Part shown: one piece after another, positions 9,459-63,872 of the stretch
Layout of the letters: the number at the start of each line of letters is the position of its first letter
Numbering within the stretch: position 1 is the stretch's first letter
Assembly (NCBI GenBank): GCA_027366035.1
Contig: DAHXLK010000017.1
Location: 8,137-72,136, forward strand
DNA from: Chlamydiota bacterium
Lineage (GTDB): Bacteria > Chlamydiota > Chlamydiia > Chlamydiales > SM23-39
DNA length: 64,000 bases
Direction of reading: 5' to 3'
Notes under the pieces: model-generated
Databases searched by the model: none
Seen by the model: only the letters and a program-made list of their open reading frames with translations
What the model was told of the DNA's origin: nothing
Position numbers and translations under genes: made by a program

Positions 9459-9624
9459 GGGACTGTTGCAATCTTTAGCTTTGCCGTTAAAATTTGAGCC
9501 TTGCAAAGTCGGTTTGATTTTTTTGAAAGCGACATATCCTACTAAGGTATAGGAACTTTTAAAAAAATCAAATTCGAAGAAGCAAGGGTAAAATTTTAAC
9601 TAACCGGGAGATTTCAACAGTCCC
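9459..9624 (+). repeat. Family-A element, copy A2
   Basis: Full-length alignment to A1. Flanked by the perfect direct repeat GTAAA (9454-9458 and 9625-9629). Confidence 0.9.
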
Positions 9625-9656
9625 GTAAATAGTAAAATTTTTATTCCGGTAGCATG

Positions 9657-9822
9657 GGGCTATTTTGATCTTCGCATAGCTTTTAAAATTTGAGCTTTGC
9701 AAGGCCGGTTTGATTTTTTTTTGAAAATGACATATCCTACCAAGGTATAGGCACTTTTAAAAAGATCAAATTCGGGAAAGCAAGGGTAAAATTTTAACCA
9801 AATGGGAGATTTCAACAGTCCC
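9657..9822 (+). repeat. Family-A element, copy A3 (left terminal repeat decayed)
   Basis: Aligns to A1/A2 from ttaaaatttgagctttgc to agatttcaacagtccc. The left end has degenerated to gggctattttgatcttc. It lies 32 bp after A2 and ends 1 nt before the ychF stop codon. Confidence 0.85.
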
Positions 9823-20693: not shown

Positions 20694-20859
20694 GGGACTG
20701 TTTCGATTTCCCATTTGGTTAAAATTTTACCCCTGCTTCTTCGGATTTGACTTTTTTAAAAGTGCCTATACCTTAGTAGGATATGTCACTTTCAAAAAAA
20801 TCAAACCGACTTTGCAAGGCTCAAATTTTAACGGCAAAGCTAAAGATTTCAACAGTCCC
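20694..20859 (-). repeat. Family-A element, copy A4 (inverted orientation)
   Basis: Reverse complement aligns end to end with A2. gggactgtttcgatttcc...aaagatttcaacagtccc. Confidence 0.9.
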
Positions 20860-20899
20860 TTTTTGGGGGCAAGGTCAACATGCCGGGCGCACCTTTGAG

Positions 20900-20987
20900 A
20901 GCTTGTGTGAACACAGACTCTCAAATTTTGCTGCAAAGCTATCAAAAAGGACAATTTTAGCAAGTAAATGGAGTTTCAAAAAAAGTC
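20900..20987. repeat. Family-B palindromic element, half copy (one arm plus centre)
   Basis: tgtgtgaacacagactctcaaattttgctgcaaagctatcaaaaaggacaattttagcaagtaaatggagtttcaaaaaaagtc matches the arms of the full family-B copy at 26104-26267. Its end touches the nadE stop codon. Confidence 0.75.
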
Positions 20988-22624
20988 TAATGCTTCCATC
21001 GCTGAACGATCGGGAATATCCTCCCTTTGCTAAAAGCCCGTTTGGTTACCCGGATTCCGGGAGGAGCTTGCCGCCTTTTGTATTCGGCGTTATGGATTTT
21101 GTTTATGAGTCCTTGTACAAGATCTAACGAAAGTCCCCTTTTCTTGCTGATATCCGTAGCGCTTAAAAGCTCTTCGACATAATCTTCTTGCACCGCATCA
21201 ACAGTGGTATATTCGGGAAGGGTATCGATATCTCTTTGTCCGGGTTTTAGCTCTGCAGTTGGCTCTTTATCTAAAATAGTTTGGGGAATCACCTTCCGGC
21301 GGCGATTGATAAATCTAGCCAGCTGATAGACCTGAGCTTTAGAGACATCATTTAAGACTCCAAGGCCGCCACACATATCGCCATAAAGAGTGGTGTAACC
21401 CATCGCCATCTCCGATTTATTGCCGGTACTCAAGACAATCGATCCAAATTTATTGGAAAAGGCCATTAAGATTATCCCCCTGATGCGAGACTGGAGGTTT
21501 TCTTCGGTAATATCCGGTTTATTTTTAGAAAAATGGGGGGCCAAAGTATCCAGAAAAGATTGAAACAGAGTATCTATAGAGAGATAAAGGAGTTTTATCT
21601 CCAAATTTTTTACAAGAAGGAGCGAATCTTCATAGCTCTCTTTAGAAGAGTAACGGGTAGGGAGAAAAAGGCAGGTGATGTTTTCTTTACCCAAGGCTTT
21701 TTCAGCAATGCAAGCAACCAGGGCTGAATCGATACCTCCGGATAAACCAAGTAGGGCTTTTTTAAAGCCTTGCTTGGAAAAATAATCCTTCACTCCTAAA
21801 ACTAGGGCAGAAAAGAGATCTTCGTAGATATCTTGTTCAAAGGCGATGGGAGATAGCCCCTGTTCCGTATCGATAATAAGATAGTCTTCTACAAACCCTT
21901 TGGCAACTTGGAGAAGCTCTCCTTTACTGCTCATATAAAGGCTGTAGCCATCAAAGATAAGCTGGTCATTCGCCCCTACTTGGTTGCAATAAACGATCGG
22001 ACATTTCAAAGTTTTTGCCGTAGCCGCAAAAGTAATGACCCTAGTATCTCGCTTTTGAAAATAGTAAGGGGAGGCGGAGAGGTTGAGGAGGAGGTCGGGG
22101 GGATTTTCTGCCAACTCTTTAACAGGGTCTCTCCTATAGTGGGTAAATAAAAGGTCCCCTCCATGTTGCCACATATCTTCACAGATAAGGATGGCGATTT
22201 TTTTTCCTTTATACTCGAAGATTTTCTGCTCTTTACCCGGTTCAAAATACCTCCTTTCATCAAAGACATCATAAGTAGGGAGGAGCGTCTTGTCCTTATA
22301 ACCTACCAGCCTGCCGTCGATAATAACTGCCGCTGAGTTAAAGGCCCCTTTTTCTTTCCCCTCCGGATTTTTCCTCGCCAGCCCTATCACAACCATAAGA
22401 TCGCTAGATGCTTTACAAATTTTTGGCATAACTTCTTCCATCTTTTCTAAAAAGCTCGGGTAGAAAAGGAGATCTTCAGGAGGGTAGCCGCAAAGGGTAA
22501 GTTCTGAGAAAAGGACAATATCGGCTTTTTGTTTTTTCCCTTTAGCGATGGCCTGAAAAATTTTTTTGACATTGTAGGTAAAGTCGCCGATGATTAAATT
22601 AAGTTGGGCTACAAAAATACGCAT
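20987..22624 (-). CDS. nadE: Glutamine-dependent NAD+ synthetase (CN-hydrolase + NAD synthase domains)
   Basis: 545-aa ORF. N-terminal nitrilase-like domain (FSELTLCGYPPEDL, ICEDMW). C-terminal PP-loop LGLSGGIDSALVA. Confidence 0.95.
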   Translation of the reverse strand: MRIFVAQLNLIIGDFTYNVKKIFQAIAKGKKQKADIVLFSELTLCGYPPEDLLFYPSFLEKMEEVMPKICKASSDLMVVIGLARKNPEGKEKGAFNSAAVIIDGRLVGYKDKTLLPTYDVFDERRYFEPGKEQKIFEYKGKKIAILICEDMWQHGGDLLFTHYRRDPVKELAENPPDLLLNLSASPYYFQKRDTRVITFAATAKTLKCPIVYCNQVGANDQLIFDGYSLYMSSKGELLQVAKGFVEDYLIIDTEQGLSPIAFEQDIYEDLFSALVLGVKDYFSKQGFKKALLGLSGGIDSALVACIAEKALGKENITCLFLPTRYSSKESYEDSLLLVKNLEIKLLYLSIDTLFQSFLDTLAPHFSKNKPDITEENLQSRIRGIILMAFSNKFGSIVLSTGNKSEMAMGYTTLYGDMCGGLGVLNDVSKAQVYQLARFINRRRKVIPQTILDKEPTAELKPGQRDIDTLPEYTTVDAVQEDYVEELLSATDISKKRGLSLDLVQGLINKIHNAEYKRRQAPPGIRVTKRAFSKGRIFPIVQRWKH

Positions 22625-23358: not shown

Positions 23359-25142
23359 CAACAGGAACCCTTTCGATCCATAGTGAAAATATTTTGCCCA
23401 TCATCAAAAAATGGCTCTATTCTGACAAAGATATTTTCGTTCGTGAACTAGTCAGCAACAGCTCTGATGCTATTCGAAAACTTAAAGTGTTAGGGGTTAG
23501 CGATACCTTTCGAATAACTATTGCTATCGACAAGGAGGAAAAGACCCTTACCTTCTCCGACAATGGGATCGGGATGACAAAAGAGGAAATAGAAAAATAT
23601 ATCACCCAGATCGCCTTTTCCGGAGCCGAGGAGTTTATCGAAAAATATCAGCTCAAAGAAGAGATCATAGGCCATTTCGGTTTAGGATTTTACTCTTCTT
23701 ATATGGTTAGCAAAAAGGTTGCTATCGACACTCTCTCCTATCAAAAAGGGGCCGAGCCGGCTTTTTGGTCCTGTGATGGTTCTTCTACTTATACAATGGA
23801 AAAAGGGACTCGGAGCCAAAGGGGAACTACCATTACCCTCTATATCGATGAAGAGAGTAGCGAATATTTGCAAGAGGGTAAAATTGGAGAAATTTTAAGA
23901 AAGTATTGTCTTTTCTTCCCCTATCCCATCTTTTTTCATGGCAAAGAGATCAATAATAAAGAGCCTCTGTGGCTAAAAAACCCATCCGAGGTCTCTGATA
24001 AGGAATATATCGATTTTTACCACCAGCTTTATCCTTTAGATCCTGCCCCTATCTTTTGGGTCCATCTCAATATCGATTACCCCTTTCACATGAAAGGGAT
24101 ACTCTATTTCCCTAAAATCCACTCCCGTTTCGACTATCAACAAAGTACGATCAAACTCTTCTGTAACAGGGTCTTTGTATCGGATAACTGTAAAGACCTC
24201 CTTCCCGATTACCTGATGGTCTTACGCGGCGCTATCGACAGCCCCGATATTCCATTAAACGTCTCTCGCTCCTATTTACAGATGGATACCACCGTTCGCC
24301 AGTTAGGAAGCCATGTGAGCAAAAAGATTTCTGATAGGCTCTCCTCTCTTTATAAAACGGAAAAAGAGAGATTTATCGAACACTGGCAAGATGTAGAGAT
24401 GATCATCAAATTGGGCATCTTGCAAGACGAGAAGTTCTATGAACGGGTAAAAGAGTTTCTCATTTGGAAGACAAATGGTGGAAATTGGGTCTCTTTAGAA
24501 GAATATATCGCCTCTCACCCGGATAAAAAAATTTATTATACCGGTGAAGAAAAAGATGAGCCCCACCTTCTTGCTGTGTATAAAGAGAAAAAGATCGAGG
24601 TCCTCTACACCCATCCGTTTATCGACACGCCACTTATCAATTTCTTGGAACGTAAGAAGGAAGGGATTAGTTTTCATCGGATCGATTCTCATGTAGACGA
24701 GCTCTTAGATCCGGCTCGTGAAAAAACCCTCCTCGATAGTGAAGGAAAAACCGAAGCGGGACGGATAGCTGATTTTGTCAGAACTTCTCTGAATATCAAA
24801 GACCTAGAGATAGAGGCGAAAAGTCTAGCCAGCGATTCGCTTCCTGCATTTTTGGTTATCGACGAGGGGATGCGGCGGCTTCGCGATTATATGCAAATGA
24901 CAAAGGAGGCCAGCCCCACATTTCCTGATAAGAAAAAATTTGTTATCAATACGAATAATAGCTTTGTCTTAGCCACCTTCCGTTTACAAAAGGACCATCC
25001 GGATATCGCCAAAGCAATAATGAGACAGATCTATGATCTAACCCTTTTTTCACAAAAAGAGTTAGATATAAAAGAAGTCCCTAAGATGATTGCTAGGAAT
25101 ATGGAGGTTATGGAAAAGCTCATACAATTGAAGAAAGGTTGA
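23355..25142 (+). CDS. htpG: Molecular chaperone HtpG (Hsp90)
   Basis: 595-aa ORF. N-terminal GHKL ATPase motifs (LYSDKDIFVRELVSNSSDAIRKL, DNGIGMTKEE, IGHFGLGFYS). Confidence 0.95.
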   Translation: MTTGTLSIHSENILPIIKKWLYSDKDIFVRELVSNSSDAIRKLKVLGVSDTFRITIAIDKEEKTLTFSDNGIGMTKEEIEKYITQIAFSGAEEFIEKYQLKEEIIGHFGLGFYSSYMVSKKVAIDTLSYQKGAEPAFWSCDGSSTYTMEKGTRSQRGTTITLYIDEESSEYLQEGKIGEILRKYCLFFPYPIFFHGKEINNKEPLWLKNPSEVSDKEYIDFYHQLYPLDPAPIFWVHLNIDYPFHMKGILYFPKIHSRFDYQQSTIKLFCNRVFVSDNCKDLLPDYLMVLRGAIDSPDIPLNVSRSYLQMDTTVRQLGSHVSKKISDRLSSLYKTEKERFIEHWQDVEMIIKLGILQDEKFYERVKEFLIWKTNGGNWVSLEEYIASHPDKKIYYTGEEKDEPHLLAVYKEKKIEVLYTHPFIDTPLINFLERKKEGISFHRIDSHVDELLDPAREKTLLDSEGKTEAGRIADFVRTSLNIKDLEIEAKSLASDSLPAFLVIDEGMRRLRDYMQMTKEASPTFPDKKKFVINTNNSFVLATFRLQKDHPDIAKAIMRQIYDLTLFSQKELDIKEVPKMIARNMEVMEKLIQLKKG

Positions 25143-25245
25143 TACGGCCTCAACTGCCCCTACTTAGTCGCCCCTGAAGTATTCCCAACTGCCCCATGAA
25201 AAATTGGCGTAAATTCAATACTTTTTTTGTTGGTTTTTGTAACAT

Positions 25246-25410
25246 GGGACTGTTGAAATCTCCCATTTGGTTAAAATTTTACCCTTGCTTCTCCGAATTT
25301 GATGCTTTTAAAAGTGCTTATACCTTGGTAGGATATGTCGCTTTCAAAAAAATCACACCGGCTTTGAAAGGTTCAAATTTTAACGGAAAAGCGAAGATCG
25401 AAACAGTCTC
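25246..25410 (-). repeat. Family-A element, copy A5 (inverted orientation, right terminus slightly decayed)
   Basis: gggactgttgaaatctcccatttggttaaaattttacccttgc...gaagatcgaaacagtctc aligns to the reverse complement of A2/A3. Confidence 0.88.
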
Positions 25411-25434
25411 AGAATTGCGAAACAAATTAATGGC

Positions 25435-26103
25435 ATGATATACATCCAGTCGATGAAAGCAAAAATTCAGGTCTTCCCCTCGATTCTTGCGGCCGATTTT
25501 TCCAAACTTGGAGAAGAGGCAAAAAGGGTGGAAGAGGCAGGTGCGGATGGGATCCATATCGATATTATGGATGGCCACTTCGTCCCCAATCTGACACTGG
25601 GACCCAAGGCGGTAGCTGCTATCAACCGGAGTACCAATCTCTTTTTAGATGTCCACTTAATGGTTTATAACCCTTTCGACTACATTGAAAGATTTGTAGA
25701 GGCGGGAGCTAACCGGATCACTTTTCATGCAGAAGCTACGGAAAGCATTGAAGATACTATTAACTTTATCCGTAAATGCGGGGCGAAAGTAGGTCTTGCA
25801 TTCAATCCTGAGACTTCCTTTTCGATGGTTCCTGAATTTTTTCATCAAATCGACCTGATCCTTTTGATGACGGTTCATCCTGGATTCGGAGGGCAAAAGT
25901 TTATGCCGGAAGTGCTTGAAAAGATTCAGCTAACCAAGGAGATGATAGATAAGTTAAAACTCAAAGTAGATATCGAGGTGGATGGTGGTATTGATGAAGT
26001 GACTGGGAAGCAGGCTTTTCAAGCAGGGGCTAATATATTAGTGGCAGGGACCTATATTTTTCAGGATAGTGATTTATCTAAAAGAATTGCGAGCTTGCGA
26101 TAA
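25435..26103 (+). CDS. rpe: Ribulose-phosphate 3-epimerase
   Basis: 222-aa ORF. PSILAADF...HIDIMDGHFVPNLT...MTVHPGFGGQKF. The true start is possibly the Met at 25453 (MKAKIQVFPSIL). Confidence 0.95.
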   Translation: MIYIQSMKAKIQVFPSILAADFSKLGEEAKRVEEAGADGIHIDIMDGHFVPNLTLGPKAVAAINRSTNLFLDVHLMVYNPFDYIERFVEAGANRITFHAEATESIEDTINFIRKCGAKVGLAFNPETSFSMVPEFFHQIDLILLMTVHPGFGGQKFMPEVLEKIQLTKEMIDKLKLKVDIEVDGGIDEVTGKQAFQAGANILVAGTYIFQDSDLSKRIASLR

Positions 26104-26267
26104 TAGACTTCTTTCGAAACTCCATTTGCTCGCTAAAATTGTCCTTTTTGACAGCTTTGCCGCAAAATTTTTCAACCATGTGTTCAAACATGCTCTCAAA
26201 ATTTTGCTGCAAAGTTGTACAAAAATTGCTAATTTTATCAAACAAAGCGAGTTTCGAAAGAAGTCTA
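26104..26267. repeat. Family-B long-palindrome element, full copy B1
   Basis: 19-nt perfect terminal inverted repeats tagacttctttcgaaactc (26104-26122) / gagtttcgaaagaagtcta (26249-26267). The arms are imperfect inverted repeats around the centre caaccatgtgttcaaacatgctc. It fills the whole rpe-stop to yvcK-start gap. Confidence 0.85.
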
Positions 26268-27233
26268 ATGAAAAAAATCGTTGTATTAGGTGGTGGAACG
26301 GGGAATTTTGTCGTCTTAAGAGGTCTTAAGCAGTACGAGGTGGATCTGACGGCGATTGTTTCGATGGCAGACGACGGAGGAAGCACCGGCATTTTGCGCG
26401 ATGAACTGGGTGTGTTGCCCCCCGGCGATGTGAGGCAGTGTTTAGTTGCTCTGTCCAATTCCTCAAGACTATTGCGCAGTTTGATGAATTACCGTTTTGA
26501 AAATGGTAATCTTGGAGGGCATAGTTTTGGTAATTTGCTCCTCTCGGCTCTGGAGAAGGTGACGGGGAGTTTTGAAAAGGCGGTCGAAGAAGCGGGAAAA
26601 ATCTTATATATTCGAGGTAAGGTATTGCCGGTTACGACTCACCAGGTACGGCTTAAGATGATTTTGAGCAACCGAAAGGTTTTGGAAGGTGAGAGGGAGA
26701 TCTATTTGTCACAAGAGATCGATAAAGGCTATAAAAGTATCTTTTTAGAGCCCTATCCTCGAGTCAATCCTAGAGTGTTAGATGAGATCAAAAATGCCGA
26801 TCTTATGGTACTGGGGCCCGGCGGACTTCATACATCCATCATCCCCAACTTTTTAGTTGAAGGGGTCACAGAGGCGATTTGTAAAACGCAGGCAACCAAA
26901 GTGTACGTAACTAATCTAATGAATCGAAAAGGACAGACCACCGGATATAAGGTAAGCGATTATCTAAAAGAAATGGTAACTTATCTAGGAAAAGACTGTA
27001 TCGATTATATTTTGGTAAATAATAAAAAACCTGTCGAAGAGCTGATCGCCAGGTATTCCGAAGAAGGGCAGATTGTTGCAAACGATATGGTCAATGATCC
27101 TAGGGTGATCCATGCCGATATGCTAGGAAATTTTGCGGAAGAAAATAAAAGGGATCTCATCAAGCGCTCTTTGATCAGACATGATAGTAAAAAATTGGCT
27201 CAGGAGTTAATGCGTATTGTTAATCATCTTTGA
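26268..27233 (+). CDS. YvcK/CofD-family (UPF0052) gluconeogenesis-factor-like protein
   Basis: Start chosen at MKKIVVLGGGTGNFVVLRGL (ATG 26268) rather than the track's 26139, which reads through repeat B1. Motif VSMADDGGSTG. Confidence 0.88.
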   Translation: MKKIVVLGGGTGNFVVLRGLKQYEVDLTAIVSMADDGGSTGILRDELGVLPPGDVRQCLVALSNSSRLLRSLMNYRFENGNLGGHSFGNLLLSALEKVTGSFEKAVEEAGKILYIRGKVLPVTTHQVRLKMILSNRKVLEGEREIYLSQEIDKGYKSIFLEPYPRVNPRVLDEIKNADLMVLGPGGLHTSIIPNFLVEGVTEAICKTQATKVYVTNLMNRKGQTTGYKVSDYLKEMVTYLGKDCIDYILVNNKKPVEELIARYSEEGQIVANDMVNDPRVIHADMLGNFAEENKRDLIKRSLIRHDSKKLAQELMRIVNHL

Positions 27234-47016: not shown

Positions 47017-47050
47017 CCAGATTTCAACAGTCCCCTTTTGGAGGCAAGAT
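47017..47050. repeat. Isolated right end of a family-A element plus conserved flank
   Basis: ccagatttcaacagtcccc ttttggaggcaagatc matches the right end and flank of copy A4 (aaagatttcaacagtccc tttttgggggcaaggtc, 20842-20876). The rest of the element is absent. Confidence 0.7.
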
Positions 47051-47066
47051 CATATTGCATAATGTC

Positions 47067-60033: not shown

Positions 60034-60198
60034 GGGATTGTTGAAATCTCCGCTTTGCCGTTAAAATTTGAGTCTTGCAAAGCCGGTTTAATTTTTTTGA
60101 AAGTGACATATCCTACTAAGGTATAGGCTCTTTTAAAAAGATCAAATCCGAGGAAGCAAGAGTAAAATTTTAATCAAACGGAAGATCGAAACAATCTT
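60034..60198 (+). repeat. Family-A element, copy A6 (termini slightly decayed)
   Basis: gggattgttgaaatctccgctttgccgttaaaatttgagtcttgc...ggaagatcgaaacaatctt. Starts at the nucleotide after the rpoC TAA. Confidence 0.88.
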
Positions 60199-60591: not shown

Positions 60592-60758
60592 GGGACTGTT
60601 GAAATCTCCGCTTTGCCGTTAAAATTTGGGCCTTGCTTCCCCGGATTTTATCTTTTTAAAAGTGCCTATACCTTAGTAGAGGATATGTCACTTTCAAAAA
60701 AATCAAACCGACTTTGCAAGGCTCAAATTTTAACCAAATGGGAGGTCGAAACAGTCCC
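60592..60758. repeat. Family-A element, copy A7: outer arms in plus orientation, inner core (60637-60715) inverted
   Basis: The outer parts match A1 collinearly (gggactgttgaaatctccgctttgccgttaaaatttgggccttgc ... gcaaggctcaaattttaaccaaatgggaggtcgaaacagtccc). The segment between the 18-nt inner inverted repeats matches the reverse complement of the A1 core. Confidence 0.88.
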
Positions 60759-63710: not shown

Positions 63711-63872
63711 GGGACTGTTTCGATCTTCCATTTGGTTAAAATTTTACCCTTGCTTCCCCGGAGTTGATCTTTTTCAAGCGCCTATACCTTAGTAGGATAT
63801 GTCACTTTCAAAAAAATCAAACCGGCTTTGCTAGGCTCAGATTGTAACCAAATGGGAGATCGAAACAGCCCC
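63711..63872 (-). repeat. Family-A element, copy A8 (core in minus orientation; mosaic subterminal modules)
   Basis: gggactgtttcgatcttccatttggttaaaattttacccttgc...gctaggctcagattgtaaccaaatgggagatcgaaacagcccc. Both subterminal 9-mers are of the ccaaatggg type. Confidence 0.85.

Follow-up and report, generated by a model that had tools for sequence, protein, structure and literature searches.

Why should a palindrome lie between two genes without a single nucleotide to spare? In a 64,000-nt stretch of contig DAHXLK010000017.1 from a Chlamydiota bacterium (GenBank assembly GCA_027366035.1; the whole stretch is called the window below), a hairpin-forming palindrome of 164 nt at positions 26104–26267 fills exactly the gap between the stop codon of rpe and the start codon of a yvcK/CofD-family gene. 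We propose that it is a transposable element of the miniature inverted-repeat type (MITE), not autonomous itself but derived from, or riding on, the ISCaa3/ISOt1 clade of the IS5 family (ISL2 group) of insertion sequences (ISs), and we put the probability of this reading at about 0.85. The element has the terminal inverted repeats (TIRs) of such ISs and the same 3-bp target-site duplication, is small and transposase-free, and exists in multiple dispersed copies. The locus itself then holds no surprise: the overlap of a stop and a start codon received a MITE, the 3-bp duplication restored the two genes, and no function is needed to account for a fit that seems designed.

The palindrome at the rpe–yvcK junction

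The features of the junction, which lies in the gene order htpG-rpe-yvcK-HAD-efp-accB-accC, are as follows.

25435–26103, + strand: rpe, ribulose-phosphate 3-epimerase, the upstream gene (Pfam Ribul_P_3_epim, E 5e-75), with its stop codon TAA at 26101–26103
26102–26104: left copy of the 3-bp AAT target-site duplication, overlapping the rpe TAA
26105–26266, no strand assigned: the MITE itself (162 nt), a member of the 164-nt chlamydial class and an imperfect palindrome along its length, bounded by TIRs and flanked by AAT/AAT
26105–26122, + strand: left TIR, AGACTTCTTTCGAAACTC, 18 nt, matching IS ends at two other loci (L043 and L124)
26249–26266, − strand: right TIR, GAGTTTCGAAAGAAGTCT as read on the + strand, the perfect complement of the left TIR
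26267–26269: right copy of the AAT duplication, providing the AT of the yvcK ATG at 26268–26270
26268–27233, + strand: the yvcK/CofD-family gene, downstream (Pfam CofD, E 6e-91)

The sequence is as the initial annotation described it, with 19-nt termini (TAGACTTCTTTCGAAACTC / GAGTTTCGAAAGAAGTCTA) that are perfect inverted repeats; pairing of the arms extends over 46 and 37 nt, with 78–80% complementarity. That annotation also held that deleting the palindrome leaves cgaTAATGaaa, a TAATG overlap of stop and start. Literal removal of 26104–26267 gives cgaTAAATGaaa instead, with TAAATG at the junction, but the overlap is recovered when the 162-nt element is removed together with one copy of AAT. 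The empty site would accordingly read gcgaT-AAT-Gaaa, within a predicted empty allele GCGATAATGAAAAAAATC. The exact fit between the genes follows from this arrangement, because duplication of the AAT within TAATG regenerates both TAA and ATG. The CofD domain begins at residue 4 of the open reading frame (ORF) that starts at ATG 26268, and homologues are 320–326 aa long. The closest YvcK homologues, together with the gene order, assign this DNA to an uncultured chlamydia.

A second, truncated copy of the same MITE lies at the 3′ end of nadE.

20886–20988, − strand: truncated MITE copy of about 105 nt, found with nhmmer; its end gives the AG of the nadE TAG
20989–20991: AAT beside the truncated copy, the surviving copy of a target duplication; its A is the T of the nadE stop on the − strand

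Together, the end of the element and the duplication's first base make up the nadE stop TAG (− strand, 20987–20989). A half copy had been reported at 20900–20987; it is real and slightly longer than that, since positions 1–105 of a profile made without the window copy align to 20989–20886 (nhmmer, E 3e-16). The truncated copy is 85.6% identical to the full one over 97 nt.

Distribution and target site

To place the element, one genome per GTDB species was scanned with the end pattern TAGACTTYTTTYGAAACTC. At least 120 stretches match it, against an estimated chance expectation of about 17, and the matches listed fall overwhelmingly in Chlamydiae/Simkaniaceae/Parachlamydiaceae, Rickettsiales (Rickettsia, Tisiphia, Wolbachia), Legionella and other Legionellales, Holospora, Francisellaceae and Chthoniobacterales/Verrucomicrobia. 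Among the matches listed, the ends are 146 nt apart in 34 pairs and 163–167 nt apart in 20, hereafter the short and long classes. The window MITE belongs with the latter: a profile built from 17 copies of other genomes finds it at E 8.8e-45, and its nearest copy (L100) is 88.9% identical. The earlier proposal of a repeated, mobile palindromic family is supported. In the plasmid collection searched, neither class was matched.

We extracted 66 paired copies, of which 64 had usable flanks and were oriented for target statistics. The base to the left of TAGAC equals the base to the right of GTCTA in 57 of the 64 (expected fraction 0.27; binomial p 1e-25); position 1 of the duplication is A in 59/64 and position 3 is T in 59/64; an identical ANT stands on both sides of 46/64; and the base immediately outside the duplication is Y/R in 74%. 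From these flanks the unit is an AGAC...GTCT element bordered by a 3-bp ANT direct repeat. The target consensus is a palindromic Y|ANT|R, of which the TAATG of the window is a perfect instance (Y-AAT-R).

As first delimited, the 164-nt element begins and ends with TA, which would suit a Tc1/mariner- or IS630-type MITE with a TA duplication. We give that identification almost no credence. The bases outside the TA agree in the 57 copies just mentioned and are followed by A and T, making the repeat the 3-bp ANT instead, and the IS that carries these ends encodes a transposase of the IS5/Harbinger type, DDE_Tnp_4, not DDE_3.

An ATG adjoins 26 of the 64 copies, and homing to start codons was considered and rejected: only two of these ATGs begin ORFs of at least 60 aa, the window yvcK and one at L059, and the excess of ATG follows from a Y|AWT|R target.

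Some relatives of the element depart from both size classes. Very short elements of 46–58 nt, roughly two TIRs back to back, occur at L003 (5681–5738) and L008 (5431–5486), and TIR pairs of 46–50 nt also at L065, L074 and L086; they are possibly minimal or collapsed MITEs. The same TIR bounds 170-nt elements with another interior in metagenome-assembled genomes (MAGs) of gut Clostridia/Eubacteriaceae (L081, 1761–1930; L092, 4114–4283). Single TIR matches turn up in Bacteroidales, Arcobacter and Brevinematales, some of which may be due to chance; L112, L116 and L117 also belong to this set of observations. The TIR family is not strictly limited to intracellular bacteria.

A probable transposase partner

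Insertion sequences of 906–909 nt with these same ends encode IS5-family (ISL2-group) transposases of the ISCaa3/ISOt1 type. In a Francisellaceae MAG (L043, 1774–2684), a 909-nt IS flanked by AAT/AAT lies between TIR matches spaced 911 nt; its left end agrees with the window TIR at 18/18 nt and its right end over the first 17 nt. Its two ORFs overlap at an A7 run, carry HTH_Tnp_4 and then DDE_Tnp_4/DDE_Tnp_1, and match NCBIfam transpos_IS5_4. A related IS with ATT/ATT flanks is present in a Rickettsia endosymbiont (L044). An Orientia locus (L124) holds an IS of 906 nt. At its left end (AGACTTCTTTCGAAACT) this IS agrees with the window TIR in the first 17 nt, and at its right end it differs at two positions; the locus also has two MITEs of 140 and 143 nt with closely similar ends, one of them flanked by AAT/AAT. 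Fragments of the transposase also lie beside the TIR where contigs of Chlamydiia, Rhabdochlamydiaceae and a gammaproteobacterium end, and a Holospora locus with the TIR holds a further fragment.

Fusing the two ORFs of L043 gives a transposase with 67% identity to the "IS5-like element ISCaa3 family transposase"; identity is 69% to a 216-member cluster of Orientia IS5 transposases and 70–72% to proteins of Legionella anisa, Neochlamydia and chlamydial MAGs. Chlamydial MAGs other than that of the window thus do encode this transposase. ISCaa2 and ISCaa3 of Amoebophilus asiaticus and relatives belong to the IS5 family, ISL2 group, are 914–916 bp long, and have two ORFs with a −1 frameshift that yield 275 aa; they have relatives in Orientia, Legionella, Regiella and Parachlamydia and are common to intracellular bacteria, between which this clade has already been proposed to move (Schmitz-Esser et al. 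2011, PMC3196728). Window-type ends are found on members of this transposase clade, and the L043 IS shares with ISCaa2/ISCaa3 a length of about 910 bp, two ORFs overlapping at an A-run and the 67% transposase identity given above. Unlike the window MITE, ISCaa2/ISCaa3 are autonomous and about 910 bp long, and the ends of ISCaa3 are diverged (AGAGATCTTCTGAAACC). No direct repeats were reported for them (PMC3196728), whereas ANT is seen here.

There is a precedent for such a pairing in Orientia tsutsugamushi, where ISOt1, of the IS5 family, is accompanied by its cognate MITE, mISOt1 (Nakayama et al. 2008, PMC2575882). We apply that name to copies identified from sequence, going by the description in the paper and not by a sequence in it. 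Their ends differ from the window TIR at 1–3 of the first 17 nt. Like the window element they have ANT flanks and a long-hairpin architecture, and at 140–143 nt they are in the same size range; their interior is unrelated and their host belongs to another phylum. A more distant parallel is offered by the Tourist MITEs of PIF/Harbinger, which likewise pair a DDE_Tnp_4-type transposase with a 3-bp A/T-rich duplication and short, palindromic, non-autonomous derivatives, but are eukaryotic, duplicate TWA rather than ANT, and have unrelated ends.

A mechanism can be sketched from these parts. Two ORFs that overlap at an A7 run would yield a DDE transposase (HTH_Tnp_4 plus DDE_Tnp_4; about 274 aa), which, supplied in trans, would recognise the 18-nt ends AGACTTCTTTCGAAACTC and insert the element at a 5′-Y|ANT|R-3′ target, duplicating ANT. 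Landing in an rpe/yvcK TAATG overlap, the element would leave ...TAAT on its left and AATG... on its right, so that both reading frames stayed intact. A second copy would have entered the 3′ end of nadE, where it gives the stop codon, and would have been truncated later. Mobilisation in trans, and a source of the transposase within this genome, are what we would expect of such an element.

Relatives without the element

Three relatives whose YvcK is 85–88% identical to that of the window keep rpe beside yvcK and have no element there. The spacer is 16 nt in one (L123) and an unrelated 325 nt in another (L121); in the third (L122) the rpe and yvcK ORFs overlap around CAATG. A copy of a second palindrome family, family A (described below), which lies between htpG and rpe in the window, is also missing from these relatives; at that junction three relatives have only 0–53 nt. 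Both insertions appear to be lineage-specific and not ancient conserved intergenic sequence.

Several observations weigh against deriving the window element from this IS group. An exactly matching empty site was not found, the three relatives being too diverged for a base-by-base comparison of filled and empty sites. The 64-kb window contains no transposase of the ISCaa3/ISOt1 type. By profile search, the window class has an interior related neither to that of the IS nor to those of the short class and the Orientia MITEs; what is shown is therefore a sharing of ends, not an internal deletion of an IS. Finally, the second transposase ORF of L043 is offset by +1 at the A7 run, not by −1, unlike that of L044; this IS copy may be defective through a frameshift mutation or reflect an assembly error.

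Folding and arm symmetry

Folded as RNA, the 164 nt reach −68.8 kcal/mol on the + strand and −76.9 kcal/mol on the − strand, against about −25 to −33 kcal/mol for shuffled controls (z about −12.5; 0/200 as stable), and the stem in the mRNA context is exactly 26104–26267. All 21 copies of the long class, including that of the window, fold better on the strand opposite to the rpe–yvcK mRNA strand of the window, by a mean of 13.7 kcal/mol, a bias for which shared ancestry may account. RNAalifold on the long family detects terminal helices only, because the variable interiors misalign.

In an alignment of 32 short-class copies (alignment A1) the terminal helix is invariant, and a subterminal helix (columns 22–39 with 114–131) covaries strongly, with both-sided changes in 97 cells compared with 36.5±4.4 in shuffled alignments (0/500 reach it) and 20–34 in slid controls. 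The covarying pairs change nearly always from one Watson–Crick pair to another, with few G–U, which points to symmetry at the level of DNA. Candidate causes are a repeated fold-back origin, conversion between arms or a requirement of transposition, any of which may apply. The extended inverted repeat inside the TIR is absent from the autonomous IS, despite the covariation of the arms in these copies. Concerted evolution between arms was rejected as a general property: arm identity within an element is 0.61–0.69, not above the identity of the same arm between elements.

A very stable fold and compensatory covariation in the related 146-nt class are what a dedicated structured RNA would show, whether a small RNA gene or a cis-regulatory element of the rpe–yvcK operon, in place of a mobile element. 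We consider this very improbable. Copies stand at unrelated loci in many phyla with target duplications, relatives have the junction without the element, the ends equal those of transposase-bearing ISs, and the Watson–Crick-to-Watson–Crick pattern itself suggests DNA-level symmetry. No Rfam family was matched at gathering thresholds, the only hits being plant MIR hairpins at 15–42 bits (thresholds 68–249). The initial annotation's expectation that this is no ancient, locus-specific RNA gene is upheld by the copies at unrelated loci and the absence from the junction in the three relatives.

A different proposal, compatible with an origin as a MITE, is that the insertion was later co-opted, its hairpin juxtaposing UAA and AUG and so preserving translational coupling, or serving as a site of mRNA processing or stabilisation. 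The stem would suit such a role, since it begins immediately after UAA and stops immediately before AUG, and the TIRs and duplication are intact. A scan of 25100–26500 turned up nothing resembling a terminator or a promoter, which makes read-through transcription plausible, and an intercistronic hairpin of −69 kcal/mol might affect rpe–yvcK expression. Against this, only two of the 26 ATG-adjoining copies stand at real gene starts, which makes start proximity a by-product of target preference, and relatives do without the element. We think co-option unlikely.

Relation to RPE-1 and coding potential

The short class can be named. Its translations match the NCBIfam model for the "palindromic element RPE1 domain" (TIGR01045) along its full 48 positions, with scores (cut-off 30 bits) of 86.9 in a Rickettsia endosymbiont, 59.9 in a Rickettsiales MAG, 36.8 in Wolbachia and 35.8 in a Legionellales MAG; 21 of 34 short-class peptides match at E≤0.01. 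We identify the 146-nt class as RPE-1, a Rickettsia palindromic element (RPE), on the strength of these full-length matches. Like RPE-1 (Ogata et al. 2000; TIGR01045), the window copy has the same 19-nt ends, with terminal peptides RLLSKL...EFRKKS, an ANT duplication, a palindromic and stop-depleted sequence, and a net insert divisible by 3. RPE-1 is 144+3 nt against 162+3 nt for the window copy, however, and with unrelated interiors only the ends and target are common to the two; peptides of the window copy gave no match to TIGR01045 in any frame at E≤10. An RPE-1 copy would be about 144–150 nt long and able to lie in frame within genes, whereas the window copy is 162 nt, intergenic and stop-free in four frames, although related copies do occur inside predicted proteins. 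Among representative proteins, 25 contain the window-class peptide; several of these are chlamydia-like, 274–562 aa long, and have it as an N-terminal or internal segment. A word-indexed protein search with the window peptide returned no candidates.

Freedom from stops is general to these elements. At least one frame is open over the whole element in 59 of 65 copies, and the mean number of open frames per element is 1.65 in the long class (dinucleotide shuffles 0.62±0.14) and 2.43 in the short class (0.76±0.12). Element and duplication together add a net 147 nt in 81% of short-class copies; for the window copy the figure is 165 nt. Four copies of the short class, at L048 (1930–2075), L118 (891–1036), L050 (5296–5441) and L084 (1974–2119), are in frame within ORFs of 321–1393 aa, in Chthoniobacterales and Legionella/Legionellales. 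This is the behaviour of RPE-like "protein-coding palindromes" outside Rickettsiales, though the L084 ORF may have arisen, instead, when two tandem Vut_1-like genes fused.

An ORF started by TTG (26139–27233) reads in frame from within the window MITE into yvcK, an effect of the element being stop-free in four frames; gene callers may on this account over-extend yvcK by 43 codons. A like extension is also present in the database proteins P0255, P0260, P0263 and P0264. For annotators, ORFs that cross stop-free elements in this way are likely to be artefactual extensions.

The interiors of the long class, RPE-1 and the Orientia MITEs proved mutually unrelated in profile searches. The three are separate MITE families, and what they have in common is confined to the ends and target of a single IS group. 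The window element is a new family among the IS5/ISL2-derived MITEs of mISOt1/RPE-1 type. More broadly, and with somewhat less than even confidence, we suggest that several MITE families, including RPE-1, the 164-nt chlamydial family and mISOt1, ride one transposase of the ISOt1/ISCaa3 type and are exchanged among intracellular bacteria of protists and arthropods. Such elements seem built for being tolerated within genes, being stop-free, adding a multiple of 3 nt, and carrying a duplication able to regenerate stop and start codons. In the searchable literature RPEs are described as selfish or MITE-like, with no named parental IS and no link to IS5/ISL2; subscription papers were outside this scope, and earlier publication is possible. 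That the ends and ANT duplication of RPE-1 also bound a transposase-bearing IS opens RPE mobility to experiment. The findings also take RPE-1-type elements beyond Rickettsiales, their hosts including Legionella, Wolbachia and Chthoniobacterales, place a separate family in Chlamydiae, and add a layer of small elements to the known gene exchange among intracellular bacteria.

Family A

The window holds a second palindrome, family A of the initial annotation, in which the junction element was family B. Family A is 162–167 nt long and runs from GGGACTGTT to AACAGTCCC; there are eight copies, plus a solo end at 47019–47034.

1692–1856: family A copy
9459–9624: family A copy
9656–9822: family A copy
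20694–20859: family A copy
25246–25410: family A copy, between htpG and rpe
60034–60198: family A copy
60592–60758: family A copy
63711–63872: family A copy

The two cleanest copies have 5-bp duplications (TTCAT/TTCAT and GTAAA/GTAAA), a third matches at 4/5 positions and the others are decayed, so that family A appears to make 5-bp target duplications. Most copies have one reading frame that is open or interrupted by a single stop.

Families A and B had been taken for probable diverged relatives with the same unit length. If so, they would be versions of one family moved by the same machinery, which we find improbable. Half-elements were aligned in 12 comparisons with 3000 dinucleotide shuffles each, and the best, the right-end type of A against the left arm of the long class of B, reached z=4.06, the other eleven not being significant. 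Behind this score lies a terminal similarity of about 30 nt (TTTCGA.CTCCCATTTG...TAAAATT) that 13 of 3000 shuffles equal, and it is marginal, at about 0.05 once corrected for the 12 comparisons. The lengths are similar (165 and 164 nt), a coincidence with no demonstrated meaning, and the B profile touches one A copy in register at E 0.1. The A profile, in turn, matches none of the 66 paired B-type copies; the ends of A are GGGAC... and its two intact duplications are of 5 bp, as opposed to the 3-bp ANT of B; and A peptides match no RPE model. The ends of B are conserved across phyla, while those of A were found nowhere else searched: in the other genomes and metagenome contigs scanned, a 25-nt degenerate pattern of the A end had no match, an 18-nt pattern had 52 single matches, about the estimated chance level and none a real A copy by nhmmer, and no A copy was present in 120 B-bearing loci. 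The kinship proposed earlier, whether as common descent or as a common transposase, is not supported.

Several peculiarities of family A may be recorded. Its GGG ends and 5-bp duplication recall Tn3-derived miniature elements, although no partner was found. With the copy at 25246–25410 on its other side, rpe has a different MITE on each flank. The ends come as two alternative modules, GGGACTGTTGAAATCTCCGCTTTGCC and GGGACTGTTTCGATCTCCCATTTGG, whose left and right places relative to the centre are exchanged in different copies (1692–1856 compared with 60592–60758 and other copies), which looks as if the core had been inverted by recombination between the arms. Lastly, the final 16 nt of one A copy together with an 18-nt flank (TTTTTGGGGGCAAGGTCA; 20844–20877) recur 26 kb away at 47019–47052 with 91% identity, which suggests that A has a longer variant or that the junction was duplicated.

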